Both the position numbers and the translations under genes were made by a program. The notes under the pieces were generated by a model, which ran no database searches, was not told the DNA's origin, and saw only the letters and a program-made list of their open reading frames with translations. Below are positions 1-57,204 of a stretch of DNA of 64,000 nucleotides, piece by piece; within the stretch, counting starts at the first letter, position 1; every line of letters starts with the position of its first letter. This stretch comes from Geminicoccaceae bacterium (lineage in GTDB: Bacteria; Pseudomonadota; Alphaproteobacteria; Geminicoccales; Geminicoccaceae). The DNA is taken from contig JBFWWD010000001.1 in assembly GCA_050246385.1 (NCBI GenBank), positions 9,789 to 73,788 of the forward strand, written 5' to 3'.

Positions 1-336
1 GCGATTCTGCGGGAGGGCCACGCCTGGACGGCGGCGCGCATCGCCGCGGGCTCGCCGGCACCAGGGGTCGCCGTCGCGGTCGCCACCGGGCCGGTCCTGT
101 TTGGCCCAATCGGCCATGCCTCGCGGCGGGAGTACACGATCATCGGCGAGCCCGTGAACCTTGCGGCTAAGCTCGAGAAGCACGCCCGGGCGGAGTCCAC
201 CTCGGGCCTGACGACCGCCGCGACGATCGGCATCGCCCGCGCGCAGGGATTCGTCCCCGCCGGCGTCCTGTCGGCGCGCGGGTGGCGCCGCGTGTCGGGC
301 CTCGCCACGCCCGTCGATCTCGTGGCGATATCTTGA
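1..336 (+). CDS. class III adenylate/guanylate cyclase, C-terminal part (5' end outside window)
   Basis: Frame 1 is open from base 1. The translation ...SRREYTIIGEPVNLAAKLEKHA... matches the conserved C-terminal catalytic motif of class III cyclases. Stop at 334-336. Confidence 0.7.
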   Translation, partial: AILREGHAWTAARIAAGSPAPGVAVAVATGPVLFGPIGHASRREYTIIGEPVNLAAKLEKHARAESTSGLTTAATIGIARAQGFVPAGVLSARGWRRVSGLATPVDLVAIS

Positions 337-365
337 CGGAGCGGCACTTGGCGGTAGCGGAGCGG

Positions 366-1109
366 ATGCCCGACGAACCCGACGAGGAGACCCGGCGGCT
401 GTGCCGGATCCGCCTGCTGCGCACCTTGCCCGCCGACGAGTGCGCCACCCTGGCGACGCGTTGCGCCTGGCGGCGCTATGCTGCCGATGCCACGATCATC
501 GCCCGCGACGGTAGCGAGCGCGAGTTCCTCTTTATCGTCGAGGGCCGGGCGCGGGCGGTCGACCTGACCGAGCGCGGCCGTGAGGTGGTCTATGCCGAGA
601 TCGGCCCCGGTGGCCATGTCGGCGAGCTCGCCGCCATCGACGGCGGCCCGCGCTCGGCCGACGTCGTCGCGGTGACCGATTGTCTGGTCGCAGCCCTGCC
701 CGTGACCGAGTTCCGCGCGCTGCTGCTGCGGCACGCCGCGATCTCGCTCGACCTGCTCGAGGACGTCGCGCGCATGGTCCGCATGGCCGATCTGCGCATC
801 ACCGAGCTGAGCACCATGGGTGCCGTCGAGCGGATCTGTCGTGAGCTCCTGCGCCGCGCGGTCCCGCATCGCGAGGAGGCCGAGCTGGCCGTGCACGACC
901 TGCCGACCCAGGAGACCCTGGCCGGCCTGACCGGCACGACGCGCGAGACCGTCGGCAAGGTCATGATGCAGCTGGCCCATGCGGGTCTGGTGCGGCGGCG
1001 GCGGCGCACGCTCCTCCTGGTCGACCTCGATCGGCTGCGGCAGCTCGCCGGCCTCATCGCGGCCGATCCGCTTCCGGTGGCGGCGAACGGGCGACCCTCG
1101 TCCGACTGA
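366..1109 (+). CDS. Crp/Fnr family transcriptional regulator (cNMP-binding domain + HTH)
   Basis: Part of ORF 282..1109; the ATG at 366 gives a sensible N-terminus. It has a cNMP-binding barrel (FIVEGRARAV...GPGGHVGELAAIDGGPRSADVVA) and a C-terminal Crp-type HTH (TQETLAGLTGTTRETVGKVMMQLAHAGLV). Confidence 0.85.
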   Translation: MPDEPDEETRRLCRIRLLRTLPADECATLATRCAWRRYAADATIIARDGSEREFLFIVEGRARAVDLTERGREVVYAEIGPGGHVGELAAIDGGPRSADVVAVTDCLVAALPVTEFRALLLRHAAISLDLLEDVARMVRMADLRITELSTMGAVERICRELLRRAVPHREEAELAVHDLPTQETLAGLTGTTRETVGKVMMQLAHAGLVRRRRRTLLLVDLDRLRQLAGLIAADPLPVAANGRPSSD

Positions 1110-1279
1110 TCGCCCAGGAACAACCTGCCCGACCAGCGGCAGATCACGGATCGGCGATCCGTATTCGGCGCTACCGCGCAAGCATCCGGCTCAGCTCATT
1201 CTCCATCTCACCGGAGGTCGCTCGATCCTCGGTCGTCTGAGCGAGGTGACGACTTCCGGACCAAATGGAGGTTCCCACC

Positions 1280-1642
1280 ATGTCGCGCATGCCCTACTTC
1301 AGGACGACTTCGCGACTTGTCACCGGATTGGTCGCCCTGCTCGCTCTCGCCGAGCCGACGCTTGCCGACACCGCGGCGCCCGCGCCGGACCCGCACCGGC
1401 CGACCTGCGCCGCGCGCGACGAGATCAAGGACGTGCTGGAACAGCGTTACGCCGAGCGCCAGGCCGCGCTCGGGCTATCCCAGGACGGCCGCCTGCTGGA
1501 GGTGTTCACCGCGGCCGACGGGCTCACCTGGACGATGCTCGTCACCTCCACGGACGGCGTCAGCTGCGTGATCGCCTCGGGCCGCTCCTGGCGGCAGCAC
1601 ACCCCGCCGATCCCCGGCCTCGACGCCGGATGGAACCCCTGA
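1280..1642 (+). CDS. secreted hypothetical protein
   Basis: Part of ORF 1265..1642. The ATG at 1280 gives a signal-peptide-like N-terminus (MSRMPYFRTTSRLVTGLVALLALAEPTLA). The mature part has two Cys. It lies 22 nt upstream of the MotA-like gene. No family recognised. Confidence 0.5.
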   Translation: MSRMPYFRTTSRLVTGLVALLALAEPTLADTAAPAPDPHRPTCAARDEIKDVLEQRYAERQAALGLSQDGRLLEVFTAADGLTWTMLVTSTDGVSCVIASGRSWRQHTPPIPGLDAGWNP

Positions 1643-1664
1643 GCGGCGCCTGGAGGGAACAGCG

Positions 1665-2339
1665 ATGTCTGCGGCTCTGTTTGCGGCGCGGCCCGTCGCC
1701 CTTGCGGCGCAGGATCCCCGGCCACACGCGTTCCTCGCGCAGTTCGCCCTCGCCAACATGGCGGCCGTGGCCCTCGCGACTGCGGCTTGGCGGCAGGGCT
1801 GGGTCGACCGGCTGCTCGACGGCGACAGCAGCCGTCTCGGCCTCGCCATCCTCGCCACCTTCACGGTGGGCCTCGGGCTCGCCACGCGGGCGGCGGGCTC
1901 ACTCTCGCGCGAGCTCGACGCGGCTCGTGCCGCCCGTCCCCAGCCGGACACCGTCGCGGGTCGATACCTCCGGGCGGTGACAATGACCGCTCCGGACCGC
2001 CGTGCCGGCCTCGACGCGTCCTTGAAGCTGGCGGTTGCCAGCCGGATCGCGCCGGTCCGCGCCATCGCGGGCTACCTTGTCCTGCTTGGGCTGATCGGCA
2101 CCGTGCTGGGCTTCATCATCGCCCTGGACGGGGTCGATCCGGCGCGGGCGGGCGATGTCGCCGAGGTCGGTCGCATGGTGGCGACCCTGGTCGACGGCAT
2201 GGGCGTGGCGCTCAACACGACGCTGATCGGGGCGATCCTGAACATCTGGCTCATGGTCGACTACCGCCTGCTCGAGGGCGGCGCCGTCCGCCTGCTGACC
2301 CTGGTGCTCGAGCATGGAGCCGGCCATGCAGATGCTTGA
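1665..2339 (+). CDS. MotA/TolQ/ExbB proton-channel family protein
   Basis: 224 aa with about four hydrophobic segments. The C-terminal LLGLIGTVLGFI...GMGVALNTTLIGAILN matches the MotA_ExbB channel signature. Confidence 0.8.
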   Translation: MSAALFAARPVALAAQDPRPHAFLAQFALANMAAVALATAAWRQGWVDRLLDGDSSRLGLAILATFTVGLGLATRAAGSLSRELDAARAARPQPDTVAGRYLRAVTMTAPDRRAGLDASLKLAVASRIAPVRAIAGYLVLLGLIGTVLGFIIALDGVDPARAGDVAEVGRMVATLVDGMGVALNTTLIGAILNIWLMVDYRLLEGGAVRLLTLVLEHGAGHADA

Positions 2340-2940
2340 GCCGCTCCAGGACGACGCCGAGGGCACCGTGTTCCGCGACGTCGTCATGCTGGCGCTCGCC
2401 GGCTTCGTCGCCATCGTCGTCCTCCTCCTGCCGCACCTTGCTCGTCCCGGTCGCGAGGCGAACGAGCGGGTCATCCCGCCCGGCAACGTGCTGGTCGAGA
2501 TCCGCTGGCCCGACGGCGACGACGCCGACGTCGACCTCTGGGTCCAGGCCCCCGGGGACGCGGCGGTCGGCTACTCCAACCGCGGCGGCCGGGTGTTCGA
2601 CCTGCTGCGCGACGATCTCGGCCGCCAGGGCGACGCGACCGCGCTCAACTACGAGAGCGCCTATGCCCGCGGCGCGCCCGCCGGCGAGTACACGGTCAAC
2701 CTGCACCTCTACCACCCCTCCTCCGCCCTCGGCGCGGTCCCCGTCTCTGTCGCGATCACCTTGCGGCCGGGTGTCGGTGCGGGCAGCGTCCACGCCGTCA
2801 CCCGCGAGGTGCTGCTCGAGCGGTCCGGCCAGGAGTTCACCGTGGCCCGGTTCACGCTCGATGCGCGTGGCCGGCTCGTGCCCGGCAGCATCCATGCGCT
2901 GACCAGGCCGCTGCGCGGACAAGGCCGCATCCCGTCATGA
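2314..2940 (+). CDS. membrane-anchored protein, possible ExbD/TolR/MotB-like partner with an unrecognised extracytoplasmic domain
   Basis: Overlaps the MotA-like gene (alternative ATGs at 2326 and 2332). It has a single N-terminal TM with an Asp at its cytoplasmic edge (FRDVVMLALAGFVAIVVLLL), as in the ExbD/TolR helix. The remaining ~150 aa are not recognised. Confidence 0.55.
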   Translation: MEPAMQMLEPLQDDAEGTVFRDVVMLALAGFVAIVVLLLPHLARPGREANERVIPPGNVLVEIRWPDGDDADVDLWVQAPGDAAVGYSNRGGRVFDLLRDDLGRQGDATALNYESAYARGAPAGEYTVNLHLYHPSSALGAVPVSVAITLRPGVGAGSVHAVTREVLLERSGQEFTVARFTLDARGRLVPGSIHALTRPLRGQGRIPS

Positions 2941-3464
2941 TCGACCTATTCACGCTCTATGCCGCCGAGGTGCTGCTCACGGCCGCCTTGGCCGGGCTGG
3001 CCCTGCGCTGTGCCGCCTCGGCGCTGGTGAGATTACTGGCGTTGGCGCTTGGCGCCGCCGTCATGGTCGTGAGTTGGCTCGCGCTGACCGATCTCCTGAG
3101 CCGCCCGAAGCCGATCGCTCTCGAGAACCGTCCGGTAGTGCTTCGGGAGGCGGTCGTGATCTCCGGCGACATCGTCGAGAACCAGGCGATCCATCTCTGG
3201 CTCCGTCTTCCGGAGCTCGAGGAGCCGCGCGCCTTCACCCTCCCCTGGGACCGCCGGCGGGCCGAGGAGCTGGAGACCGCGCTTGGCCGCGCAGGGCGCG
3301 AGGGTGGCCGGGTTCGCCTGATCTGGCCTGGCAGAGATCCCACCGAGCTCGAGCCGATGTTCCATCCTGAACCGCCACCGCCCCTGCCACCGAAGACGGC
3401 GGTAGTGCCGGCCTCTGTGCCCGGCACGGCGGTACTCCCCGTGGCGCGATACACGTCGGGGTGA
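2937..3464 (+). CDS. membrane protein, unknown function, Pro-rich C-terminal tail
   Basis: ATGA start/stop overlap with the upstream gene suggests translational coupling. It has two N-terminal hydrophobic segments, a soluble domain and the tail HPEPPPPLPPK. Confidence 0.5.
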   Translation: MIDLFTLYAAEVLLTAALAGLALRCAASALVRLLALALGAAVMVVSWLALTDLLSRPKPIALENRPVVLREAVVISGDIVENQAIHLWLRLPELEEPRAFTLPWDRRRAEELETALGRAGREGGRVRLIWPGRDPTELEPMFHPEPPPPLPPKTAVVPASVPGTAVLPVARYTSG

Positions 3465-3566
3465 TCTGTAGCCGGGGCTACGGCGCGCAGGATCAGGTCA
3501 GGGGACCATCCGCAGAGCGGCAGCAGCCGGCACCTAACCATCGGAGAGCCATCATGCATCTGTCGC

Positions 3567-4223
3567 GTGCCACCCGCGGCCCTGTGCGCAGCGCTCGTGA
3601 TCGGCATGGTCTCGGCCGAGCTCACCTGGGCCGAGAGGGCGCCAGTGCCGGTTCCAGCGGCCCAGTCCTGCGAGGCGATGCGTGACTACTACTTCGCCTG
3701 CCTGGATCGCTGGCCGATGCCGAGCTTCATGAAGGATCGGTACAGCGGCACGATCCACGCCGCCTACGACAGCTGCCGCGAGAACCAGGCCAACGCTTGG
3801 CTGCGCGTCGAACGCACCCTGGGCCGAGAGCTACGCGCTGATCAGACCTGCACCGTGGCGGCGAGGGCATGGCCCGCCCCTCGTCGCCGCCTTCCCTCGC
3901 TCCGTCGCGGTGCGGCCGGAGAGACTGGTCGAGCCATGGCGGCCGCATCGGCCGTGCTCGCGGCAAGGGGCGATTGGAGCGTGGCATGCCGGCGCCGCGA
4001 TCACCTCACCTGTGGAGCATGTCGATGGATACGCAGACCGTCGAGCGCCCGCTCGGGCGCGGCAAGCCGGCCGCGGAGCAGCCGGCCGAGGTCAAGACGA
4101 TCAACCTGGCGCTGCAGGGCGGCGGCGCGCACGGCGCCTTCGCCTGGGGCGTGCTCGACCGGCTGCTCGAGGACGAGCGGATCGCGTTCGAGGGCGTGTC
4201 GGCGACCAGCGCCGGCGCCATGA
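3567..4223 (+). CDS. possible small secreted Cys-containing protein (3' end uncertain)
   Basis: GTG start. The first ~95 aa look protein-like, with a signal-like segment (ALCAALVIGMVSAELTWA) and 4 Cys. The tail is Arg/Ser/Ala-rich, overlaps the patatin gene out of frame, and is probably not real. Confidence 0.25.
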   Translation: MPPAALCAALVIGMVSAELTWAERAPVPVPAAQSCEAMRDYYFACLDRWPMPSFMKDRYSGTIHAAYDSCRENQANAWLRVERTLGRELRADQTCTVAARAWPAPRRRLPSLRRGAAGETGRAMAAASAVLAARGDWSVACRRRDHLTCGACRWIRRPSSARSGAASRPRSSRPRSRRSTWRCRAAARTAPSPGACSTGCSRTSGSRSRACRRPAPAP

Positions 4224-5098
4224 ACGCGGTCGTGCTGGCCTATGGTCTCGGCGAAGGTGGCCGGGAAGGCGCCCGCACGGCGCTCACCGGCTTCTGGCGA
4301 CGGGTCAGCCATGCCGCGGCGATGGGCCCGCTGCAGCCCTCGCTCCTCGACCGGATGCTGCACAACCACTCGCTCGATTATTCGCCAGCGTTCATCATGC
4401 TCGACCTGATGAGCCGGCTGATGTCGCCCTATCAGCTCAATCCCGGCAATTACAACCCGCTGCAGCACCTGCTCGAGCAGTCGGTGGACTTCGACCGGCT
4501 GCGGCAGCGCGCGCCGGTCAAGCTGTTCCTCTCCGCCACCAACGTGCGCAGCGGCAAGGTGAAGCTGTTCACCAACCAGGAGATCACCTCCGACGCGGTC
4601 ATGGCCTCGGCCTGCCTGCCCTTCATGTTCCAGGCGGTGGAGATCGACGGCGAGGCCTACTGGGACGGCGGCTACATGGGCAATCCCGCCATCTTCCCGC
4701 TGATCTACCACTGCGACAGCCCGGACGTGCTGGTCGTCCACATCAATCCCCTGGAGCGGCCCGAGATCCCGCGTAGCGCCACCGAGATCATGAACCGAAT
4801 CAACGAGATCTCGTTCAACAGCTCGCTCATGCGCGAGATGCGGGCGATCGCCTTCGTCAGCCGCCTGATCGACGAGGGCGCGATCTGCGACCGCACGATG
4901 AAGCGCATGCACATCCACGCGATCTCGGCCGACGCGGTGATGCGCAAGCTGTCGGTGATGAGCAAGCTCAACGCCGACTGGGAGTTCCTCACCCACCTGC
5001 GCGACGACGGCCGCGAGTTCGCCGCCCGCTGGCTCGACGAGAGCTTCGACCGGATCGGCGTCGCCTCGACCGTCGATGTCGCTGCCCGATACCTGTGA
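4019..5098 (+). CDS. patatin-like phospholipase family protein
   Basis: ATG at 4019 within ORF 3869..5098. It has the oxyanion motif LQGGGAHGAFAWGVL, the nucleophile motif VSATSAGAM and the catalytic Asp in YWDGGY. Confidence 0.85.
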   Translation: MSMDTQTVERPLGRGKPAAEQPAEVKTINLALQGGGAHGAFAWGVLDRLLEDERIAFEGVSATSAGAMNAVVLAYGLGEGGREGARTALTGFWRRVSHAAAMGPLQPSLLDRMLHNHSLDYSPAFIMLDLMSRLMSPYQLNPGNYNPLQHLLEQSVDFDRLRQRAPVKLFLSATNVRSGKVKLFTNQEITSDAVMASACLPFMFQAVEIDGEAYWDGGYMGNPAIFPLIYHCDSPDVLVVHINPLERPEIPRSATEIMNRINEISFNSSLMREMRAIAFVSRLIDEGAICDRTMKRMHIHAISADAVMRKLSVMSKLNADWEFLTHLRDDGREFAARWLDESFDRIGVASTVDVAARYL

Positions 5099-7009: not shown

Positions 7010-7332
7010 GCACGTAGGTTAGTACTACAGCCCGTTTTCATGATCGACCCGGCGCCGCCAGTGACATCTTCGCGCGCCTTGCTGGTGGCGGTGCGCCCCA
7101 GCCGGACCAGGCGAGGGCCAGCTCGACGTTGAGCATGCTCGGCCAAACGAGACGCCAGAGCAGGCGGCAGATTTCCGGGACGGTGAGCGGCAGGAGCTCG
7201 GCCAGCAGATCCGGCGTGGCCTCCTCCCCCGACCACGGTCTTGCGCAGGACAGCGAGATAGGCGTGGGCCAGCATGGCGCGGGTGACATGGCGGTGCGAA
7301 TCAGTTTCGTGGCAAAGGAGTCGGACTGGCAC
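7010..7332 (-). mobile_element. IS701-like DDE transposase, C-terminal remnant (frameshifted, N-terminus missing)
   Basis: Two minus-strand frames join to read HRHVTRAMLAHAYLAVLRKTVVGG / DLLAELLPLTVPEICRLLWRLVW...ALAWSGW. This is the characteristic C-terminal block of IS701-type transposases. No catalytic N-terminal part is present. Confidence 0.55.
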
Positions 7333-7339
7333 GAGGACG

Positions 7340-8026
7340 TCAAGGACCTAGAATTTCCGGCAATTGTGCTAGAGACCCTATCTGCCGATCGGGCGCTCCG
7401 GGCAGCCGTTCCGGCCGCTGTCCGTAGCGGTTGCACCAGACGACACGCATGCCGAAGGCTGAGGCGGCGTAGGCGTCCCAGGCATTCGAGGACAGAAAGG
7501 AGATTGCCGTTGGCTGCAGCCCGAGCCGGTCGACGGCAAGTTGATAGACCAGCGGATGTGGCTTGTAGACGCCGACCTCCTCGACGGAGAGAACAGCATC
7601 GAACAGGCCGCGCAGACCGGCGCGTTCGACGGCGGCGTCGAGCATGTCCGGCGTGCCGTTTGAGAGGATCGCGGTCTTGAGCCCCGAGCCCCTCAGGCGC
7701 CGCAGCGTCTCCGGTACCTCGGGAAAGCAGTCCAGCCTCAGATAGAGTTGCATCAGCCTCGCGCGTAGCCCAGGCGCGCGAATGGCGAGCGTCTCCATCG
7801 CGAAATCGAGGGCGTCGCCGGTCACCTGCCAGAAATCGGCGTGCTGGCCCTGAGTAGTCCTCAGCCATGTGTATTGCAGTTGCTTGTCGCGCCAGAGAGC
7901 GGTCAGAGCGTCTGCGTGATCGCCGAGGACGTCATGGCATCCTTTGGCAGCGGACGCGAAGTCGAACAGCGTGCCATAGGCGTCGAAGACACAGGCCCTT
8001 ACCCCGGACAGAGGCTTGTCCGTCAT
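7340..8026 (-). CDS. haloacid dehalogenase type II (HAD superfamily)
   Basis: ATG at 8026 within ORF 7340..8386. Nucleophile motif VFDAYGTLFD, SNG motif, and the YKPHP...AWDAYAASAFG tail typical of L-2-haloacid dehalogenases. Confidence 0.85.
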   Translation of the reverse strand: MTDKPLSGVRACVFDAYGTLFDFASAAKGCHDVLGDHADALTALWRDKQLQYTWLRTTQGQHADFWQVTGDALDFAMETLAIRAPGLRARLMQLYLRLDCFPEVPETLRRLRGSGLKTAILSNGTPDMLDAAVERAGLRGLFDAVLSVEEVGVYKPHPLVYQLAVDRLGLQPTAISFLSSNAWDAYAASAFGMRVVWCNRYGQRPERLPGAPDRQIGSLAQLPEILGP

Positions 8027-8030
8027 GTCG

Positions 8031-8840
8031 TCAGCTCCCGCTTTGCCGAGCGCGATCGTTGACCGTCCAGTCATAGTCAAGGAATCGAACCGTAAAGTCC
8101 GCGGGTATCTTTTCCACCCGATATTGGTTGACATACGCGACCAGATCTGGCGCCTGGACGAGGAAGTCCTCGGTGTAGAACTTGAAAATGGCGGAGAGCC
8201 AAACCTGTCTCCCGGAGAAATCGACCCGGACATTCCGATCTTCGCTGACGAACGCCCGGGCCGCTGCGTCGAGATCCCGATCCAGTGCATCGGCGCTGAA
8301 CGCTTTGCGGGGCAGCCTCGGACATCCGACGACCATGCAGTTGAGCACGAAATGCACCCGCTCCTCGCCCATCGGCCGGATGACATCGTTCTCCAGATCG
8401 TAGAGGGATATCGAATGGCCGCCGATCGCGAAGCTTTGCAGATAGAACAAGCCTACCCTTCGCAGCCAGCCAAGGCTCTGCGGCACGCCCGCCGCGACGA
8501 TGCCGCTCATTGCCAGGGCATTGTAGGCGTTGATGTAGAAGGCAAGGCGGGATGATCGATTGGGGAGCCGTCGAGGGTCGGAAACGGGATCGACGGCGGC
8601 AATGAAGGCGACGACACGATTAAGATCCTGATGATCCCGCTCCAGCGCGCCAAAGTCGATGCGACCGGCTTCATCAACGACACGGGTCAGCACCTGCGTC
8701 CAGAGCACTTCCCAGCTGGCGATGCTCAGCTCGTCCGCCGCCAGCCCGGCGGCAGGGCGCGAGGCGGCGGAGACGGCCAGCAGCGACCCTAAGGCCGCAC
8801 CGACCATTCCGCGCCGTGTCATCATCGACACTCGATTCAC
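8031..8840 (-). CDS. DUF547 domain-containing protein, exported
   Basis: Signal-like N-terminus with paired Arg (MMTRRGMVGAALGSLLAVSAASRPAAG). DUF547-like core (LAFYINAYNALAM...VHFVLNCMVVGCPRL). Confidence 0.75.
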   Translation of the reverse strand: MNRVSMMTRRGMVGAALGSLLAVSAASRPAAGLAADELSIASWEVLWTQVLTRVVDEAGRIDFGALERDHQDLNRVVAFIAAVDPVSDPRRLPNRSSRLAFYINAYNALAMSGIVAAGVPQSLGWLRRVGLFYLQSFAIGGHSISLYDLENDVIRPMGEERVHFVLNCMVVGCPRLPRKAFSADALDRDLDAAARAFVSEDRNVRVDFSGRQVWLSAIFKFYTEDFLVQAPDLVAYVNQYRVEKIPADFTVRFLDYDWTVNDRARQSGS

Positions 8841-10291
8841 GGTCTCATCCTGTTGGCAGCCGTCGCGCGTCTGAGCCGGCCCTTCGCCACCCTGCGGCTG
8901 GATGCTGTCGATCCGGGCGCGGCAATAGACCGCCCAACGGCCGTCTGGCCGGTCAGCGGATGCCAGAACTGCTCGTCGGGTGGGCCCGGGATTCGGAGCG
9001 GCTCAAGGATAAAAGCGTCGCGCTTGGCGTTGTGCAGGCACATCGATATCGGACCGGCCTGCGTCGCCACCGGAAAGATGCAGGCGTCGATGCGCTCCCG
9101 CTCGAGCCGACACGAATCCATGAAGTCGTGGATCACGAAGGAGAGCTTGTCGACTCGTCCTCGCGCCGCAATCAGGTCAGCCTTGGCCCGCCAGATCTTC
9201 CGAACCAGCCAGCCGGCGCCTCGCGCCAGGGAATGCGGGCTCGACAGGACCCCCGCCACGAAGGCCCGGACGGCCGCCGCCCGATCCTGCCGGTCGAACT
9301 GCAGATGGGCCGTCGCCTGGAGAACGATCTCGAACAGCCGCCGATCGTCGAGCAGATCGTACACCCGCCCGTTGGTCACCGCCGTGATCGCGCATCGGCT
9401 GCAGCGGGCATGGCCGATCCCCGCCGTATCGAACGACAGGTGCGTGCCGGTGCCCTTCTCGATCTGCCGAGCGGCGGCGGCCATGGTCAGGCTCGGGTCG
9501 CGACGGCCCAGCACCCCGCGTCCCGTCGCGGCCTGGAGCTGGAACGACGCCAGGCGGACTATGTCGCTGTTTCGGACGAAGAAGCGGACGACGTCGGGGA
9601 TCTGATCGACATTCCCCTCGAACACGGTCGTGTTGAAGAAGACAGACAGCGGGAGCCCGCGCGCCCTCTCGATGTAGTCCTGCCGGACCGCGTTCAGGGC
9701 GACCTCGCTGTCGTAGCCTTTCCGGTCCTGCGTCAGATCCACGTGGAAGGCCACGTCGATCAACCCTACCCCGACCAGCTCCTCCAGCAGATCACGCTTG
9801 GCTCGGATGCCATTGGTGAACAGCGTTGGCCGCATCCCCCTGGAGCGGATCCGCCGGACGATCGCGACGAGCTCGTCACGCCGCCGCAAGGTTGGATCAC
9901 CGCCGGTGACCTGGATATCGGTGTTCGGGCCGTAATGCGCGAAGATCCTGTCGATGCGACGGAACAGCTCCTCGAGCGGGATGTCCTTCACCGCTTCGGA
10001 ACGCTCCGACAGATAGCAGGCCATGCAATCGAGGTTGCAGCGCTGCGTGACCTCGAGGGCGACGCATCCGATCGGCCAGCGACGCCCCATGAGCTGGCCT
10101 GCGCTCCACTGGCCGGTCGCAGCCATCCGCTCGCGCGCCTTCCCGAGAGCCGCACGGTGCTCGTCGCCCCAGGCCACAGGGTCCGCCGAGCGGAGCTCGT
10201 CGGGCGTTAGGCAGTCCCCTTCCCTCCCAGTTGCGGGATCGCAGCAGGAAGACCGCAGGGCGGGTCGATCGATCTTTTTCATTCTGAGCAT
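8837..10291 (-). CDS. radical SAM protein (about 484 aa, function unknown)
   Basis: ATG at 10291 within ORF 8837..10537. CX3CX2C cluster motif (QRCNLDCMACY) and GGDPTL SAM motif. The C-terminal region has conserved Cys (FVIHDFMDSCRLERERIDACIF...ISMCLHN). Confidence 0.85.
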   Translation of the reverse strand: MLRMKKIDRPALRSSCCDPATGREGDCLTPDELRSADPVAWGDEHRAALGKARERMAATGQWSAGQLMGRRWPIGCVALEVTQRCNLDCMACYLSERSEAVKDIPLEELFRRIDRIFAHYGPNTDIQVTGGDPTLRRRDELVAIVRRIRSRGMRPTLFTNGIRAKRDLLEELVGVGLIDVAFHVDLTQDRKGYDSEVALNAVRQDYIERARGLPLSVFFNTTVFEGNVDQIPDVVRFFVRNSDIVRLASFQLQAATGRGVLGRRDPSLTMAAAARQIEKGTGTHLSFDTAGIGHARCSRCAITAVTNGRVYDLLDDRRLFEIVLQATAHLQFDRQDRAAAVRAFVAGVLSSPHSLARGAGWLVRKIWRAKADLIAARGRVDKLSFVIHDFMDSCRLERERIDACIFPVATQAGPISMCLHNAKRDAFILEPLRIPGPPDEQFWHPLTGQTAVGRSIAAPGSTASSRRVAKGRLRRATAANRMRP

Positions 10292-39243: not shown

Positions 39244-39504
39244 CAGCGAGCGGGCGGGCGGGCGGCTCGACACCGCGGTGCGCAGCAGCTGGACTCGCAG
39301 CGGTCTGATGCCGGTGCCGATCCTCGGCACCGACCTCTCTCGACTCGTGCAATGGCTCGTGCTCCCCCTGGGCACCTTCCGTTGGGCCAGCCGGTCGGCC
39401 GCGCGGTATCTCACAAGGGCAATTCCATGATCGACCGGTCCCTGAAGACCCTTGTGCCTGCCAATCCCTCGCTGAGGACAATGCCGTCCGTTCGAGGGAT
39501 CGAG

Positions 39505-40920
39505 ATGTCGCGCCGCGATCTGCTGGCCGCAGGTGCGGCCGTGGCCGTGGCGATGCCTCTCGGCTCCGTGCGGGCGGCCGCCGTCCGTGACCACCGCCTG
39601 GTCGCCGGCACGGCGCGGGTGCCGCTGGCGGGAGCGAGCTACCCCGGGACCGAGGTCTGGGCCTACGACGGCTCCGTCCCGGGGCCGGAGATCAGGCTGC
39701 GCCAGGGCGAGCGCCTCCGGATCGTGGTCGAGAACCGGCTGACCGAGGACACGACGGTGCATTGGCACGGCGTGCGGGTTCCCAACGCCATGGACGGCGT
39801 GCCGGACGTGACCCAGGCGCCGATCGCCCCCGCCGCAACCTTCGTCTACGAGTTCGACGTGCCGGACGCGGGAACCTACTGGTATCACCCGCACCAGCGC
39901 AGCTACGAGCAGGTCGCCCGCGGCCTCTACGGCCCACTGATCGTCGAAGAACGGGAGCCGATCGAGGTCGATCGGGACGTGCTCTGGGTGCTCGGCGATT
40001 GGCGGCTCTTGCCCGATGCCAGCATCAGCGGCGAGTTCGGCAATGCCATGGAGACCGCCATGGCCGGCCGGATCGGCAACACCGTCACGGTCAACGGCCG
40101 AGTGATCGACACGTTCGCAGTCCGCGCCGGCGAGCGCATCCGGTTGCGCCTCGTCAACGCCGCGCCGGCGCGGATCTTCGCGCTCGACTTCCGACGTTAC
40201 CGCCCGCGCATGATCGCACTCGACGGCCAGCCGGTGACGCCGCACGAGCCCGCGGGCGGCCGCGTCGTGCTCGGCCCGGCGCAGCGGGCCGACCTCGTGC
40301 TCGACCTGACCGGCGCACTTGGCAGCCGCGCCACGGTCGCGGATACGTTCTATCAAGGGCTCGAGTACCGGCTGCTCGACCTTGCCTACGATGCCGAGCC
40401 GCTGCGCACCCTGCCCTCGGATGCGCCGATCGCCCTTACCGCCAACAGCCTGCCCGAGCCCGACCTCGGCGATGCCGAACGACATGAGATCGTCATGGGC
40501 GGTGGCATGATGGGCGGGATGATGAGCAGGAGCGGTGGCACAATGCAGGGCATGTCCCATGGCGGCGGCATGATGATGGGCGGCGGCATGGGCATGGCCT
40601 GGACCTTCAATGGCGTTGCTGCCACCGACCATGACATGCGACCGATGCTCGAGCTGAAGCAGGGCCGGCCCTACGTGCTGGCACTCGCGAACGAGACCGC
40701 GTGGTGGCACCCGATCCACCTGCACGGCCATGTCTTCCGGGTGATTGCCCGCGACGGCGCACCGACTCCGTTTCGCGAGTGGCGTGATACCGTGCTGCTC
40801 GCGCCGCGCGAGCGGGTGGAAATTGCCTTCGTCGCCGACAATCCCGGCGCCTGGATGATCCATTGTCACGTCCTGGACCACCAGAACGGCGGCATGATGG
40901 CGATGATCGAGGTTGCCTGA
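39505..40920 (+). CDS. multicopper oxidase with Met/Gly-rich insert, Tat-exported
   Basis: Tat-like MSRRDLLAAGAAVAV. Copper sites VHWHGVRVP, WYHPH, HPIHLHGH and HCHVLDHQNGGMM. Insert GGGMMGGMMSRSGGTMQGMSHGGGMMMGGGMGM. Confidence 0.85.
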   Translation: MSRRDLLAAGAAVAVAMPLGSVRAAAVRDHRLVAGTARVPLAGASYPGTEVWAYDGSVPGPEIRLRQGERLRIVVENRLTEDTTVHWHGVRVPNAMDGVPDVTQAPIAPAATFVYEFDVPDAGTYWYHPHQRSYEQVARGLYGPLIVEEREPIEVDRDVLWVLGDWRLLPDASISGEFGNAMETAMAGRIGNTVTVNGRVIDTFAVRAGERIRLRLVNAAPARIFALDFRRYRPRMIALDGQPVTPHEPAGGRVVLGPAQRADLVLDLTGALGSRATVADTFYQGLEYRLLDLAYDAEPLRTLPSDAPIALTANSLPEPDLGDAERHEIVMGGGMMGGMMSRSGGTMQGMSHGGGMMMGGGMGMAWTFNGVAATDHDMRPMLELKQGRPYVLALANETAWWHPIHLHGHVFRVIARDGAPTPFREWRDTVLLAPRERVEIAFVADNPGAWMIHCHVLDHQNGGMMAMIEVA

Positions 40921-40958
40921 TGGCCCTGTCGGCCGTGTTCAGAAAGGAGAAGTGAGCG

Positions 40959-41417
40959 ATGATGCGACGTGATTTCGGCCTCGCCTGTCTCACCCTCGCG
41001 GCAGGCCCGGTACCTGTGCTTGCAGCGGCACGGCCGATGGGCGTGCTCTACAAAAACCCCCAGTGCAGCTGCTGCGAGGCGCATGCGGACTATCTCCGGC
41101 AGTACGGCTATCAGATCGAGGTCAAGCCGAGCTTCGACCTGGTGGCAATCAAGCGGCAGAGCGGCGTGCCCGAGACGCTCGACGGCTGTCACACGATGCT
41201 CATTGGCGGCTACGTGGTCGAGGGCCATGTCCCGGCGGGGGCCATCGACCGCCTGCTCGCCGAGCGCCCGGTGATCAAGGGCATCTCGGTTCCCGGCATG
41301 CCGGCGGGCTCGCCCGGGATGCTGGCGCCGGGAGAGCAGCAGCAGCTCCTCACCGTCTACGAGATCTCTACCGATCCGGCATCCGGCGCGACGCCGAAGG
41401 TATTCGGTGTCATGTGA
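40959..41417 (+). CDS. copG: DUF411 (CopG-like) periplasmic metal-binding protein
   Basis: Shine-Dalgarno plus ATG and a signal peptide. Motifs NPQCSCC and DGCHTM...GHVP, and MPAGSPGM. Confidence 0.8.
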   Translation: MMRRDFGLACLTLAAGPVPVLAAARPMGVLYKNPQCSCCEAHADYLRQYGYQIEVKPSFDLVAIKRQSGVPETLDGCHTMLIGGYVVEGHVPAGAIDRLLAERPVIKGISVPGMPAGSPGMLAPGEQQQLLTVYEISTDPASGATPKVFGVM

Positions 41418-41600
41418 CTCGATGAGCGGCAACCCCGCCAGACCTCGTTGCCGCAGCAGGCCAGCCTGGCCGGCCATCATCCTGGGCGATTCACCGGCCC
41501 GCCCATGAGGAGCAGACGGGCCTGCCCCCTGCCCTGGGGGCAGCTCGAGACTCACGGCATGGCTGGAGAGAGGGCCGCGGGCCTTTCTTGATCCAGATCA

Positions 41601-42041
41601 ATGATGCGACGACGGGATGTGGTAGGAAGCAGCGGAACTTGCGCTGTTGGAACAGAGGTGGCGATCCAAGCTCCGCCGTTCGTCGCAGGCTCGAGCCGTC
41701 TCCAGGCCAGCGGCTGGCGCTGGGTGGCCGCGGCGTGCATGCTGGCCTTGGTGGTACTTGGTCTCGCCCTTCCGGATCAACCGCGCGCCCAGGAGCTCGC
41801 CAGCTTCCCTGTCGTGATTGTGGCGAGTGATGGAGGCGGTCACTGCCCAGGGTCGCACGATAGCGGCCCCTCCGGACATTGCCACGGCAGCATCCAGGTC
41901 CATGCCTGCTGCATCCTGCCAATAGTTGCAGGCACTGACGTGCCGGCGGCAACGCGCAATTGGAGCCGGTATCGCGCGCCATGGCCTGCCGAGCGCGTGA
42001 TCGCTCCCAATCCCCGCCCGCCTTCGCCCATCGTCGTCTGA
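41601..42041 (+). CDS. small membrane/exported Cys/His protein with Pro-rich C-terminus (family copy 2 of 5)
   Basis: Hydrophobic WRWVAAACMLALVVLGLAL, cluster HCPGSHDSGPSGHCHGSIQVHACC, and tail WPAERVIAPNPRPPSPIVV. Confidence 0.45.
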   Translation: MMRRRDVVGSSGTCAVGTEVAIQAPPFVAGSSRLQASGWRWVAAACMLALVVLGLALPDQPRAQELASFPVVIVASDGGGHCPGSHDSGPSGHCHGSIQVHACCILPIVAGTDVPAATRNWSRYRAPWPAERVIAPNPRPPSPIVV

Positions 42042-42118
42042 TCGATCACTCCGCCCGAGTGGCGGACCATTGGTGAGCTTCCGGCGCCCTGCGCACGGTC
42101 AGCGACGAGGATCGAAAC

Positions 42119-42385
42119 ATGCCTGATTACGCTGCCAGGAGCGGTCACTGGACGCAAAAGGACCAGCACCGCCCGCTACTCTTGTGGATCGGGCTGACCC
42201 TTGCGGTCGTGCTCGGCTTCTTTCTCCTCACCGAGCACCGGGCGCATCTCTTCGGAGCGCTCCCCTTCCTGCTCGTCCTGCTCTGCCCCTTGATGCACCT
42301 GTTCATGCACCACGGGCATGGCCGCCACATGCACGAGGCCGGCACGAGACCAGATACGAGCCCGAACCGAGAGGTGCGGCCGTGA
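42119..42385 (+). CDS. DUF2933 domain-containing membrane protein
   Basis: LLTEHRAHLFGALPFLLVLLCPLMHLFMHHGHGRH is the typical DUF2933 core. Confidence 0.7.
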   Translation: MPDYAARSGHWTQKDQHRPLLLWIGLTLAVVLGFFLLTEHRAHLFGALPFLLVLLCPLMHLFMHHGHGRHMHEAGTRPDTSPNREVRP

Positions 42386-42565
42386 GCCATGAGGCGGCCG
42401 CTACCTTCGGCGCAACCTGACATGCCTGAACGGCCGCAACTGCGGCGTGGGTACCGCACGGTCGGCAAGGAGCCGCGCACGCGTCGCAACCCGGCTGGCG
42501 TGGGGCTCGGAACGACGATCCTGGGGCGATCCAGCCGGCATCCGACATCTCAAAGGAACAGAGTC

Positions 42566-43123
42566 ATGCAGATCGACCGAATGCTGCGCGTAAGCGCGCT
42601 CGTCACGCTCCTCGCCATCAGCCCGCTCACGGCACAGGAGGCGGGTCAGCAAGGGCACCACCCCGCCGCCGCGGCTGCTGCGGCACCTCCGGCCGCGAAG
42701 CCGGCACCGTCAGCCATGCCGGGAGCGGGCCCGGCCACGGGACAAGGCGGCATGATGATGCCGGGGGCCGGCGACGAGCGACACATGGCCATGATGCGCG
42801 AGTGCATGGGCATGATGGGGAGCATGATGCAGGGCGGGGACGGCATGGTGGCTTCCCTGCCCGACGACCCCGTCGCCGGCGCTTTCGCCGCCATCAACAA
42901 CCGCATGCACCGCGACATGGCGGTTCCTGCGGGTGCGAAGCCGGACATCGCATTCGCGCAGGCGATGGTGGCGCACCATCAAGGTGCCATCGACATGGCC
43001 AAGGTCGTCCTCGGCTTCGGGGCCGACCCGGAGATCCGCAAGCTGGCGCAGGACGTCATCACCGCCCAGCAGGGCGAGATCGAGTTCCTGCAGCAATGGC
43101 TGGCCCGGCAGTCCCCGCAGTGA
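42566..43123 (+). CDS. DUF305 domain-containing protein with Met-rich N-terminal extension
   Basis: ATG at 42566 and a signal peptide. Met-rich GQGGMMMPGAGDERHMAMMRECMGMMGSMMQGG. DUF305 core FAQAMVAHHQGAIDMAK...VITAQQGEIEFLQQWL. Confidence 0.8.
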   Translation: MQIDRMLRVSALVTLLAISPLTAQEAGQQGHHPAAAAAAAPPAAKPAPSAMPGAGPATGQGGMMMPGAGDERHMAMMRECMGMMGSMMQGGDGMVASLPDDPVAGAFAAINNRMHRDMAVPAGAKPDIAFAQAMVAHHQGAIDMAKVVLGFGADPEIRKLAQDVITAQQGEIEFLQQWLARQSPQ

Positions 43124-43207
43124 GGCCGGCGTAATCGGCCTCCCGATCCGGGCGCTCGAGGCAACTCGGGCACCCGGGCGGGGCAGGCTCGGCCTGGGGG
43201 ACGGCCG

Positions 43208-43483
43208 TCAGCGATCGCGCTGCGTCAGCACGGTCAGGAGCTCTTGGACCTTGCGGCGCTGATCGTCTCCGTCGCCGCTGGCGATCGCGCCCTCGACGCA
43301 GTGCTCGACATGATCCTTGAGCACCTCGTCCTCGACGCCGCGCAGCGCCGCACGGATCGCCCGGATCTGGGTCAGGACGTCGATGCAGTACCGGTCCTCG
43401 TCGATCATCCGGGCGATGCCGCGGACCTGACCCTCGATCCGCTTCAGCCGATCGCCACACCTGCGCTTTGTGTCCGCTCTCAT
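43208..43483 (-). CDS. csoR: CsoR/RcnR family metal-sensing transcriptional repressor
   Basis: 91 aa with [16 protein letters not shown] and the Cu(I) ligand pattern C-H-C (RYCIDV...DHVEHCV). Divergent from the P-type ATPase. Confidence 0.85.
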
Positions 43484-43494
43484 GTCTTGTACAT

Positions 43495-43509
43495 TACCCC
43501 CCTAAGGTA
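43495..43509. promoter_or_regulatory. putative CsoR operator TACC-N7-GGTA in the csoR/copA divergent promoter
   Basis: TACCCCCCTAAGGTA lies 12 nt from the csoR start codon and 58 nt from the copA ATG. It is a C/G-tract pseudo-palindrome of the type described for CsoR operators. Confidence 0.45.
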
Positions 43510-43566
43510 TATCTCGTCAAGCATCGGGATGCCGACCGCCTGCGAGGCGAGGTAAGGAAATCGTCC

Positions 43567-45939
<2,373 letters not shown>

Positions 45940-51934: not shown

Positions 51935-53251
51935 TCAGGCCGGCCGGCCGGCGCCGTCGACCTTGTAAGCCACGGTGCCCGGCGGATGCTCGAACCAGCC
52001 GGGATCCGTGTAGTCGCCGGGGGCGACGTCCTTCCTGACTTTGACGACCGTGAACATGCCGCCCATCTCGATCGGCCCGAACGGGCCCTCGCCGGTCATC
52101 ATCGGCAGCGTGTTCTCGGGCGGCGTCATGCCGTGGGCGGCCATGTCCTGCATCTCGGCCATGCCCTGCTCGCCCATCGGCATGTACATGTAGTTGGGCA
52201 GCAGGCGGGCCACCCGCTTCGCCGCCGCCGTCTGCCGGACACCGATCATGTTGGCGATCTCGTGGCCCATCGGGCCCATGGTGTGGTGCGACTTGTGGCA
52301 GTGGAACGCCCAGTCGCCCTCCTCGTCCGCCGTGAACTCGATGCAGCGCATGGCACCCACCGGGATGTCGGCGGAGACCTCCGGCCACTGCGCGCTCTCC
52401 GGCACCCAGCCGCCATCGGTGCCGGTGACCCGGAAATCGTAGCCATGCAGGTGGATCGGGTGGTTGGTCATGGTCAGGTTGCCGATCCGGATGCGCACCC
52501 GATCGCCTTTCCTGACCACGATCGGATCGATGCCCGGGAACACCCGGCTGTTCCAGGCCCAGGTGTTGAACTCGAGCATGACCGAGGTGTCCGGCACCCA
52601 GGTGCCGGGCTTGACCTCGTAATTGGCCATCACGAAGCCGAAATCGCGGTCGACCGGGCGGAACGACGGGTCCTTCGGGTGCACGATGAACAGACCCATC
52701 ATGCCCATGCCCATCTGCACCATCTCGTCGGCGTGGGGGTGGTACATGAACGTGCCGCTCTTCTTCAGCGCGAACTCGTAGGCGTAGGTCTCGCCGGGCT
52801 GGATCTGCGTCTGCGTCAGCCCGCCGACCCCGTCCATCCCGCTCGGCAGGAGGATGCCGTGCCAATGGAAGGTGGTGGGCTCGGGGAGCCGGTTGGTGAC
52901 GAAGATCCGCACCCTGTCGCCCTCGACCGCTTCGATCGTCGGGCCGGTCGAGGTGCCGTTGTAACCCCACAGGTGGGCAATCGAGCCGGGCGCCAGCTCG
53001 CGCTCGACCGGCTCGGCGACCAGGTGGAACTCCTTGACGCCGCGGTTCATGCGCCACGGCAGCGAGCCGCCGTTGAGGGTGACGAACCCGGTGCGCCCAC
53101 CGAGCTGCCTCTTTGGCAGCGGGTCCCGAGTCGTCGGGTCGCTGAAGCGTACCGGCTCACCCAGCGCGCGCGTCTGTGCCTCAGACGCGCGGGAGAGAAC
53201 GGCGCCGGTGGCGAGCGTCACCCCGGCCGCGAAAGCGCGTCGGCTGATCAT
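51935..53251 (-). CDS. multicopper oxidase, Tat-exported
   Basis: Tat-like MISRRAFAAG. Copper sites FHWHGILLP, MYHPH, HPIHLHGYDF and HCHKSHHTMGPM. Met-rich C-terminal region (MYMPMGEQGMAEMQDMAAHGM). Confidence 0.85.
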   Translation of the reverse strand: MISRRAFAAGVTLATGAVLSRASEAQTRALGEPVRFSDPTTRDPLPKRQLGGRTGFVTLNGGSLPWRMNRGVKEFHLVAEPVERELAPGSIAHLWGYNGTSTGPTIEAVEGDRVRIFVTNRLPEPTTFHWHGILLPSGMDGVGGLTQTQIQPGETYAYEFALKKSGTFMYHPHADEMVQMGMGMMGLFIVHPKDPSFRPVDRDFGFVMANYEVKPGTWVPDTSVMLEFNTWAWNSRVFPGIDPIVVRKGDRVRIRIGNLTMTNHPIHLHGYDFRVTGTDGGWVPESAQWPEVSADIPVGAMRCIEFTADEEGDWAFHCHKSHHTMGPMGHEIANMIGVRQTAAAKRVARLLPNYMYMPMGEQGMAEMQDMAAHGMTPPENTLPMMTGEGPFGPIEMGGMFTVVKVRKDVAPGDYTDPGWFEHPPGTVAYKVDGAGRPA

Positions 53252-54468: not shown

Positions 54469-54776
54469 TGCGGGGCCTCCGCGGCCGGGGCGGCGTGGCC
54501 CATCGCATCATGATCCATGCCGGCGCGGTCGCTTGGCATGCTGGGAGGCTCCACCGCTGCGGTCGAAGCCCCTGCGGTGTCGTTAACAAACGATGGTTCC
54601 GGGCTCTCCCGGTCCAGAAGCGGCACCACCTGCTCAAAGGTACTGGGTGCGGGAACGACGCCGGCTGGGGCGGCGGGGTCCAAGGGATGTAGGTCGGCGG
54701 CGAGCGCGGCGGACCACGGCATGACTGCCGCAGCCACAAGCAGCGTTCCGGCGCCGAATCGCGACGGCAGACGCAT
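54465..54776 (-). CDS. small secreted protein with His/Met C-terminus
   Basis: ATG at 54776 gives the signal peptide MRLPSRFGAGTLLVAAAVMPWSAALA. C-terminal GMDHDAMGH. Its stop overlaps the TolC-like start. Confidence 0.45.
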   Translation of the reverse strand: MRLPSRFGAGTLLVAAAVMPWSAALAADLHPLDPAAPAGVVPAPSTFEQVVPLLDRESPEPSFVNDTAGASTAAVEPPSMPSDRAGMDHDAMGHAAPAAEAPQ

Positions 54777-54878
54777 GAGGAGATCCTGACGTGAGCCAAG
54801 GGATGACAGTCCACGGATGGACCGCTCGCGGGGGTGGCGCATCCCGCAGAGCTGCGGGACGCTGCCGCTAGGCCATCG

Positions 54879-55274: not shown

Positions 55275-55314
55275 GGCGTCCGGATAGAGCAGCGACATGC
55301 TGAAGGTCAAGCCG

Positions 55315-55329
55315 TACCTCCGTAGGGTA
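55315..55329. promoter_or_regulatory. putative CsoR-type operator TACC-N7-GGTA
   Basis: TACCTCCGTAGGGTA lies 17-41 nt upstream of the candidate starts of the small-ORF / TolC / MCO / cupredoxin operon. It has the same half-site spacing as the box at 43495. Confidence 0.35.
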
Positions 55330-57176: not shown

Positions 57177-57204
57177 ATCGTCGGCCTGCCGGAGAGGGTG
57201 AGCC

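Follow-up and report, generated by a model that had tools for sequence, protein, structure and literature searches.

A three-gene operon in a Geminicoccaceae genome

We analysed a 64,000-nt stretch of a Geminicoccaceae bacterium genome (contig JBFWWD010000001.1), hereafter the window, and concentrated on three open reading frames (ORFs) that lie one after the other on its + strand at 1665-3464. These genes, numbered 1 to 3 in their order on the strand and together referred to as the trio, encode a putative channel subunit of the MotA/TolQ/ExbB type, a protein with a single transmembrane (TM) helix that carries a conserved Asp, and a protein with two TM helices and a soluble domain. Their positions, along with those of the residues and domains discussed below, are collected in Table 1.

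All three genes carry a coding signal, with GC contents at the third codon position (GC3) of 0.87, 0.92 and 0.82 for genes 1, 2 and 3, respectively, against values of ~0.5 at the second position (GC2), in a region of ~70% GC. A chance set of ORFs can be set aside, because homologues number 1,947 for gene 2 at 90% clustering, with 1,857 clusters at 50% identity, and at least 1,208 for gene 3. Regarding the start of gene 2, a preliminary description of this DNA had placed it at the ATG at 2314. We have replaced this start by the ATG at 2326, which is most likely the real one, since it has a GGAG 5 nt upstream, fits the 204-aa protein called in databases and produces the 14-nt overlap with the TGA of gene 1 that is typical of the family. 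Genes 2 and 3 are joined through the ATGA at 2937-2940, as had been noted before. The spacings of the two junctions in the window (-14 nt between genes 1 and 2, -4 nt between genes 2 and 3) are also the commonest ones in 83 related loci.

Table 1. Coordinates, in the window, of the trio, its main residues and domains, and the gene upstream
Feature	Position	Strand	Basis or remark
Gene 1, MotA/TolQ/ExbB-family channel subunit (A subunit), 224 aa	1665..2339	+	Pfam PF01618
Gene 1 Thr146 codon, LLGLIGTVLGF motif, TM3	2100..2102	+	Invariant in 28 orthologues
Gene 1 Thr186 codon, ALNTTLIG motif, TM4	2220..2222	+	Invariant in versions from bacteria and phages
Gene 2, B-type subunit, 204 aa	2326..2940	+	Alternative in-frame ATG at 2314
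Gene 2 Asp18 codon (GAC), putative proton carrier at the cytoplasmic end of the TM helix	2377..2379	+	Conservation and alignment
Gene 2 ectodomain, residues 52-198, predicted seven-strand beta-sandwich	2479..2919	+	AF2 model
Gene 3, 175 aa: TM hairpin, SRPKP, OB-fold-like domain, Pro-rich tail	2937..3464	+	ATGA overlap
Shine-Dalgarno-like GGAGGG	1652..1657	+	7 nt 5' of the gene 1 ATG, read from the sequence
Secreted 125-aa protein (phrog_25396), upstream of the trio	1265..1642	+	PHROG match

Gene 1 encodes a four-helix channel subunit

The product of gene 1 matched the Pfam family MotA_ExbB (PF01618) with 33.5 bits, over a gathering cut-off of 22.9, which agrees with its initial assignment as a 224-aa MotA/TolQ/ExbB-family protein encoded by a gene that overlaps the next one. 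Four TM helices were predicted, at residues 22-40, 58-76, 134-152 and 180-198. When the TM and charge analysis was run on 76 orthologues, the TM2-TM3 loop showed a net charge of +5.7, and the TM1-2 and TM3-4 loops were acidic. This distribution of charges gives a MotA-like predicted topology, with both termini inside (N-in/C-in) and a basic cytoplasmic loop of just 55 residues.

The residues that line the pore in related motors could be located by alignment. Thr146 aligned to ExbB T148 and TolQ T145 (GLFGTVWGI motif), and Thr186 to ExbB T181 and TolQ T178; the mean pairwise identity of TM3-TM4 is 73%. In a search of PDB sequences with a profile of 28 gene 1 sequences, the best match was MotA (8gqy, E 4e-4), followed by ZorA-type proteins and PomA, and no ExbB, TolQ or GldL chain appeared at E values up to 10. 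The matches in NCBIfam and PADLOC were ZorA models alone, over ~66 residues and well under threshold (best NCBIfam score of 21.7 bits against a cut-off of 100, PADLOC E of at least 3e-5). According to these comparisons, gene 1 is a channel subunit of the MotA/ExbB family with both pore threonines. A gene of the MotA/TolQ/ExbB type is expected to have a single-TM partner with an Asp beside it; such a partner is present in gene 2, through the 14-nt overlap and a conserved Asp18.

Gene 2 combines a trans-pore Asp helix with a beta-sandwich head

The gene 2 protein starts with an acidic N-tail, which is short and is followed by one TM helix (residues 19-37 in the form of 204 aa), a 15-residue linker and an ectodomain of ~150 aa, and it belongs to no family in Pfam, NCBIfam, PADLOC or PHROG. 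The TM helix is directly preceded by the sequence TVFRD, whose Asp is Asp18. This residue is invariant in 33 close homologues of gene 2, is kept in at least 90% of 117 representatives of the 50%-identity clusters and is also present in four phage homologues. We aligned the gene 2 profile to ExbD and TolR from E. coli using hhalign: the TM segment alone aligned, with Asp18 falling on ExbD Asp25 and TolR Asp23. The TM helix is, in addition, the most conserved segment of the whole system, with 83% mean pairwise identity. Alignment and conservation thus identify gene 2 as a partner with a trans-pore Asp helix of the ExbD/TolR type, the role for which its sole TM helix had been singled out at first sight.

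The head is also highly conserved. Its N-terminal half (residues 52-130) presents 79% mean pairwise identity over 76 loci, with invariant motifs at W61, D68-V-D-L-W-V73, L93-x-R-D-D-L-G99, E110, R115 and N125. The AlphaFold2 (AF2) model (predicted local distance difference test, pLDDT, of 72) consists of the helix, the 15-residue linker and a seven-strand all-beta sandwich. Searching the PDB with this model by Foldseek gave nothing below an E of 1e-3 and no ExbD, TolR or OmpA fold. The matches in BFVD were generic beta-sandwiches with E values above 1e-3, apart from two unannotated viral proteins, and searches of PDB sequences with gene 2 profiles gave nothing meaningful. The same picture was obtained with Pfam: the ExbD/TolR domain (PF02472) was not matched at E values up to 10 in 33 members of the family or at E values up to 1 in 117, the OmpA-like domain (PF00691) was not found in the family, and MotB_plug (PF13677) was matched by 1 of the 117 members, with an E of 0.009. 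As modelled, the head is not an ExbD, TolR or OmpA fold, and on this point the preliminary description holds.

It had also called the ectodomain unrecognised, which has to be amended. The top recurrent weak Pfam match of the gene 2 family is DUF2135 (PF09906), found in 9 of 33 members and then in 13 of 117, with a best E of 1.3e-4; the protein from the window itself showed no match to it. Aligning the family by hhalign to YfaP from E. coli, a DUF2135 protein, gave an E of 3e-4 and a probability of 39% over 75 columns, and both share the pattern W-x-D-x-x-x-D-(L/V)-D-L-(H/W)-V...G-x-Y-x-V. The head is probably a remote relative of DUF2135, judging from these sequence matches, and not a member of that family.

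Gene 3 encodes a TM hairpin with an OB-fold-like domain

Gene 3 belongs to an unnamed family of proteins of ~171 aa. It is composed of two TM helices (2-24 and 29-54), an invariant SRPKP, a domain resembling an oligonucleotide/oligosaccharide-binding (OB) fold at residues 71-144, and a PEPPPPLPPK tail. Its AF2 model, with a pLDDT of 78 overall and of 85-90 in the domain, displays the TM hairpin followed by a beta-beta-beta-alpha-beta-beta arrangement, which is the OB-fold topology. The weak structural neighbours found by Foldseek are all OB folds (RuvBL, eIF5A, pertussis toxin B subunits, the LysRS N-terminal domain and Teb1); against the PDB these were generic OB matches alone, with E values above 1e-3. 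The sole weak Pfam match was to DUF4131, the TM plus OB module of ComEC (E 0.018, 15.2 bits against a cut-off of 31.6), in one of nine members, and no family was found in PADLOC or PHROGs. The hairpin loop has a net charge of +3.0 and the N-terminus is acidic; because of this, the N-out/C-out orientation is favoured, with the OB domain and the Pro-rich tail predicted to be periplasmic.

The tail spans 20-30 residues and is conserved in the bacterial versions of gene 3, and it is mostly gone in those from phages. We found no SHLS motif and no conserved His in either of the TM helices, and no TonB_C domain or TolA domain III in Pfam searches. Of what had been proposed for this protein, the two TMs, the soluble domain, the HPEPPPPLPPK stretch and the lack of TonB_C stand, but its tail is 'TonB-like' by resemblance only.

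With the three proteins described, one could argue that the trio is a divergent but otherwise ordinary Ton or Tol system, in which gene 1 would be ExbB/TolQ, gene 2 ExbD/TolR and gene 3 TonB/TolA, with the receptors or Pal encoded elsewhere. Indeed, it shares with ExbB-ExbD-TonB and TolQ-TolR-TolA the gene order (A, B, then a third partner that would be the transducer), the GxxGT and TT(x)xG motifs with both threonines in the A subunit, a B subunit with a short N-tail, one TM and the Asp on ExbD D25/TolR D23, and a membrane-anchored third protein with a Pro-rich stretch. However, the A subunit of the trio has four TMs, like MotA, instead of three, as well as a minimal cytoplasmic loop, and its profile retrieved none of the ExbB or TolQ chains in the PDB. 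The B head is a DUF2135-like beta-sandwich and not the alpha/beta fold of ExbD/TolR, and the third protein is a two-TM hairpin with an OB fold that lacks SHLS/His, TonB_C and TolA domain III. Moreover, there was no gene for a TonB-dependent receptor (TBDR), TolB or Pal near the trio at any locus inspected. We consider an ordinary Ton or Tol system highly improbable.

The three genes form a conserved unit in Alphaproteobacteria

Gene 2 relatives are present in at least 581 species-representative genomes, and nearly all of the named hosts belong to the Alphaproteobacteria (Geminicoccaceae, Rhodospirillales, Kiloniellales, Sneathiellales and Azospirillum). Co-occurrence was counted over 85 fetched bacterial loci. 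Gene 1 was found in 85 of 85 and gene 3 in 83 of 85, where both exceptions are contigs that end right after gene 2. The three proteins also co-diverge, with correlations between their pairwise distances of r 0.70-0.85. The three genes are obligatorily coupled: they occur together, in the same order and translationally coupled.

Beyond the trio, clustering of the flanking ORFs revealed no fourth conserved gene in bacteria (the next family is found in 22 of 83 loci), and the neighbours annotated by Pfam are unrelated housekeeping genes. The trio is thus not routinely placed beside Ton/Tol cargo in related genomes. The same applies to the window, where the 20 largest genes outside the trio are for copper resistance, sulphur transport, redox enzymes and the like and include no TonB-dependent receptor, flagellar, Tol-Pal or gliding gene, as the preliminary description had stated for the vicinity of the trio.

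Several metagenome-assembled genomes (MAGs) of the Geminicoccaceae type contain two complete paralogous trios that have diverged in all three genes (loci L010/L032, L026/L041, L047/L065, L062/L080 and L033/L060). L033 and L060 lie 7.4 kb apart on the same strand of contig CAVSVZ010000002.1. Identity between paralogues ranges from 66 to 82% in gene 2 and from 38 to 68% in gene 1. As for Azospirillum, the trio was detected in seven of the seven chromids found. Genes 2 and 3 are 'hypothetical' in all public records, including those of the cultured Azospirillum brasilense, A. argentinense and A. baldaniorum Sp245. In the latter, CCD01206 corresponds to gene 2 and CCD01207 to gene 3.

Phages carry miniature versions of the trio

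A tblastn search of phage genomes gave full-length homologues of gene 2, with 40-42% identity, in Sinorhizobium/Rhizobium phage 16-3 (p040) and in AP-16-3, NV1.1.1, RHph_X2_25 and RHph_TM3_3_14B, and more distant ones in the RHph_N3_19 phage group. Using hidden Markov models (HMMs) built from 76 bacterial triads, we detected all three components in these phages. The trio of phage 16-3 (NC_011103) is located at 8295-10156, where p038 corresponds to the A subunit, p040 to the B subunit and p042 to the third subunit; these numbers are their sole annotation, and no functional description of p038-p042 was found in the literature searched. IMG/VR yielded 56 viral contigs with gene 2 relatives, and the complete trio, in the same order, is present in 46 of the 60 viral loci examined. 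Hence, the term 'orphan', applied to the operon at the outset, fits the lack of conserved neighbour genes but not a module that is shared with phages.

The phage A subunit is a miniature of 113-158 aa that matches TM1-2 and TM3-4 and is devoid of the cytoplasmic loop, of which ~10 aa are left. Two of these small subunits score above the Pfam MotA_ExbB threshold, with 23.2 and 27.3 bits. The third subunit (p042 in 16-3) is again a hairpin plus OB protein, with most of the Pro-rich tail missing. The Asp, the second pore Thr and the motifs of the head are all retained in the phage alignments. In some phages the tight overlaps of the bacterial type are broken, because homing endonuclease genes have been inserted between the genes of the trio (an HNH gene in RHph_X2_25, at 7547-8089 of locus L091, and a NUMOD3-motif gene in NV1.1.1, at 6249-6986 of L092).

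In 16-3-like phages, the trio lies ~3 kb from the lysis cassette, behind the gene for a periplasmic trypsin-like protease (p036) and ahead of genes for an exonuclease and for nucleotide metabolism; in RHph_N3_19 it is found among replication genes. The protease, a serine protease with the Pfam domain Trypsin_2 (7268-8167 in 16-3, 5589-6236 in L091 and 10279-10971 in L093), is encoded upstream of the trio in 16-3-like phages, at a distance of one or two genes; in RHph_N3_19 it is encoded 3 kb downstream. No Trypsin_2 protease was found beside the bacterial trios, and no neighbour recurs in phages beyond backbone genes. The neighbours in 16-3-like phages carry little functional weight, because their arrangement is that of a shared phage backbone.

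The phage context calls for weighing a different activity, that of a regulated proton leak. The trio would then be a gated channel that lowers the membrane potential, either for the timing of lysis and holins in phages or as a stress or cell-cycle valve in cells, with the gene 2 head and gene 3 acting as its gate or plug. Unplugged MotAB leaks protons and holins fire on depolarisation. Besides, a leak would need no cytoplasmic domain, 16-3-like phages have the trio ~3 kb from the lysis cassette and beside the periplasmic protease, and the gene 2 head is held by a very short linker right above the channel mouth. Yet the proximity to lysis genes weighs little in a shared backbone, and the trio of RHph_N3_19 is surrounded by DNA-replication genes. 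A mere leak would require neither a head of 150 residues with 79% conservation nor a co-diverging third subunit with an OB fold, and the chromosomal copies are widespread and sometimes duplicated. We regard a proton leak as quite unlikely.

A CtrA box precedes a large subset of the operons

In 78 bacterial loci, we scanned the 250 nt lying upstream of gene 1 for the motif TTAA-N7-TTAAC and its half-site TTAACCAT, using 100 dinucleotide-preserving shuffles as a control. Allowing one mismatch at most, the full motif was present in 35 of the 78 loci, compared to 1.7 +/- 1.25 (maximum 5) in the shuffles. Perfect copies were found in 12 loci (0.08 expected) and the half-site in 9 (0.39 expected). 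Both are sites published for CtrA, as its full site and its half-site, respectively (PMC3692519). The box lies ~130-230 nt upstream of gene 1 (for instance in loci L008, L014, L017-L019, L035, L042, L047, L048, L074, L083 and L085), and it goes with the trio, because the flanking genes differ between loci. According to this enrichment, CtrA, a regulator of the cell cycle and of motility, appears to control the operon in many Geminicoccaceae and Rhodospirillales; the predicted control applies to a large subset of the family and not to every member. In the window, the trio is preceded by the 125-aa gene and a Crp/Fnr-family regulator instead of a CtrA box, and promoter, terminator and Rfam scans of window positions 1-6 kb found nothing.

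This predicted regulation also bears on a possible role in defence. The trio could be an anti-phage or superinfection-exclusion device, a minimal Zorya-like sensor in which the motor would detect how an incoming phage perturbs the envelope and would then block its entry or collapse the membrane potential, and whose phage copies would exclude competitors. Such a role would fit with ZorA models being the sole NCBIfam/PADLOC matches of gene 1, with ZorA-type chains among its best PDB sequence matches and with a weak similarity to ZorA in TM3-TM4 that includes a long periplasmic loop between both helices. Like ZorA-ZorB, the trio is neither flagellar nor Ton and is linked to phages, in this case temperate ones that carry the module; the flanking genes vary between genomes, and a patatin phospholipase is encoded downstream in the window. 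In contrast, the scores are far under the cut-offs (21.7 bits against 100 for ZorA), gene 1 does not have the long C-terminal cytoplasmic tail of ZorA, gene 2 has no peptidoglycan-binding domain as in ZorB, and there is no ZorC/ZorD/ZorE-like effector or other conserved partner, the patatin being adjacent in 2 of 85 loci. The neighbours with Pfam annotation are those of housekeeping regions and not of defence islands, the distribution is not patchy, given the seven of seven Azospirillum chromids, and a CtrA box at 45% of the copies would be unexpected for defence genes. Finally, the trio of 16-3-like phages is part of a rightward block between lysis and DNA-metabolism genes and is not beside the repressor. 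In our opinion, a Zorya-like device is unlikely.

Comparison with other motors of the superfamily

Regarding the flagellar stators MotA-MotB and PomA-PomB, the resemblance comes from MotA 8gqy as the best PDB match of gene 1, from the four TMs with the N-in/C-in topology and from the single-TM partner with an Asp. The trio differs from them in lacking a torque-generating domain in the cytoplasm (the loop measures 55 aa in bacteria and ~10 aa in phages), a MotB plug and an OmpA-like peptidoglycan-binding domain, and in having no flagellar genes nearby. As for GldL-GldM, from gliding and type IX secretion (T9SS), no chain was found among the PDB sequence matches of the gene 1 and gene 2 profiles at E values up to 10.

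A closer parallel may be found in TolQ-like motor genes paired with Asp-bearing trans-pore-helix proteins that have a vWA (von Willebrand factor A) domain, which are predicted to sit inside the pentamer and whose function is described there as unknown (PMC12204202, section 8). In both cases, a MotA/TolQ-like gene is accompanied by a trans-pore Asp protein that is not ExbD; however, the former have a vWA head and form heterologous pairs, whereas the trio has a small beta-sandwich head, one B gene and a third subunit of the hairpin-OB type. That work does not mention the trio and anticipates that more such motors remain to be found. A survey of MotAB proteins groups systems of this kind as heterogeneous 'generic ion transporters' (PMC12505986).

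We found no description of the trio in the literature searched, which covered DUF2135, p038-p042 of phage 16-3 and censuses of 5:2 motors. Outside the motors, the likeness is to two domains, in both cases below the family threshold: gene 2 shares the head motif with DUF2135 (E. coli YfaP), and gene 3 the TM-TM-OB layout with DUF4131 (ComEC N-terminal). We know of no function for either of them, nor of any pairing of these domains with a MotA-like channel. What is known here is the MotA/TolQ/ExbB superfamily to which gene 1 belongs; what is new is the family itself, large and unannotated, in which both the head of the B subunit and the third subunit are new as well.

A model for an envelope machine

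Considering these results, we think it probable that the trio is a self-contained proton-driven machine that acts on the cell envelope, an undescribed family within the MotAB/ExbBD/TolQR superfamily of 5:2 rotary motors. The idea of a stator-type unit that harvests the proton-motive force, put forward in the preliminary description, finds support at the sequence level in the pore threonines, the Asp helix and the genetic coupling. By analogy with the mechanism of MotAB, ExbBD and TolQR, five copies of gene 1 would surround a dimer of gene 2 (A5B2), and the passage of protons through the site formed by Asp18, Thr146 and Thr186 would make the gene 1 ring rotate relative to the gene 2 dimer. The hairpin of gene 3 probably docks outside the ring, at the site that TonB and TolA use on ExbB and TolQ, and its periplasmic OB domain would then be moved relative to the gene 2 heads. 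Alternatively, gene 3 might be the partner that is gripped by these heads; its role is the least secure step of the model.

The work is probably done in the membrane or the periplasm, because the gene 1 of phages is devoid of the cytoplasmic loop and an outward orientation is predicted for gene 3. Similarly, the target would probably be a conserved component of the envelope (peptidoglycan, another glycan or a cation-dependent ligand) rather than a cargo encoded in the operon. This is suggested by the extreme conservation of the gene 2 head, by its many invariant residues (Asp, Glu, Arg, Asn and Trp) and its short linker, and by the lack of a cargo gene. The miniature copy of rhizobiophages would presumably manipulate the host envelope during infection.

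Several points weigh against an envelope machine of this kind. The orientation of gene 2 is assigned by analogy: its N-tail is acidic, as in ExbD, and the charges by themselves leave it ambiguous. In the model of its head, confidence is low for the most conserved loop (residues 84-102). The assignments to DUF2135 and to the OB fold are weak, with Foldseek E values above 0.01 and no Pfam match for the protein of the window. The docking of gene 3 onto gene 1 is purely one that we infer, and gene 3 does not have the SHLS/His motif of TonB and TolA. Lastly, there is no CtrA box in the window, in Azospirillum or in 53 of 54 viral loci, so that this box cannot define the function of the whole family.

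A bolder proposal, which we put forward tentatively, is that the trio constitutes a sixth functional class of 5:2 ion-driven motors, next to the flagellar, Ton, Tol, gliding/T9SS and Zorya ones. It would be a minimal envelope machine, controlled by CtrA in many alphaproteobacteria, that phages have copied and miniaturised to remodel or commandeer the envelope of their host. In that case, no MotA-type motor smaller than the phage version, with its A subunit of down to 113 aa, would be known, and it would also be the first one that a phage encodes together with dedicated B and third subunits.

To our knowledge, motors of the MotA/ExbB type are the only known means of delivering proton-motive energy to the periplasm and the outer membrane in Gram-negative bacteria. 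Each family of these motors that came to be understood (Ton, Tol, gliding and Zorya) has revealed a new process of the cell envelope. In the case of the trio, the highly conserved head of the B subunit points to a conserved envelope ligand, and this would be the first motor of this type to be found complete in the genomes of phages. Judging from the phage versions, almost all of the cytoplasmic mass can be dispensed with, so that they are attractive as minimal models in which to study structure and mechanism, and genetic systems with which to address function already exist for A. brasilense/baldaniorum and for Sinorhizobium phage 16-3.

Neighbouring genes and other features of the window

The gene located immediately upstream of the trio was considered as a fourth component and rejected, given that a homologue was found in 5 of 85 loci and that its phage relatives belong to unrelated phages. 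The five loci are all from the closest relatives of the window. The gene stops 22 nt short of gene 1, and its product, of 125 aa, has two Cys and a signal peptide and matches phrog_25396 with an E of 3e-17, as well as proteins from Rhodobacter, Roseobacter and cyanophage genomes. In the window, this gene may be co-transcribed with the trio.

The patatin and Crp/Fnr neighbours were likewise rejected as parts of the module, with 2 of 85 loci each. The patatin-like phospholipase is encoded downstream of the trio at 3869-5098 (+) and has a weak match to a PADLOC phospholipase effector (E 5.5e-7). We also discarded the locus being a prophage, as no phage genes flank it or the bacterial loci annotated by Pfam.

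The exact sequence of window positions 1200-3600 was found in DNA metagenomes alone (landfill, sludge and bioreactor), and no RNA runs holding it were found. The GC content of window positions 1-4000, which include the trio, is 71-72%, against 63-69% over most of the remaining window, a difference that could reflect horizontal acquisition or local variation. Unrelated to the trio, a copper-resistance region occupies 39352-45939 and 51935-59673, with three multicopper oxidases, a YHS/HMBD P-type ATPase and an outer-membrane efflux protein.

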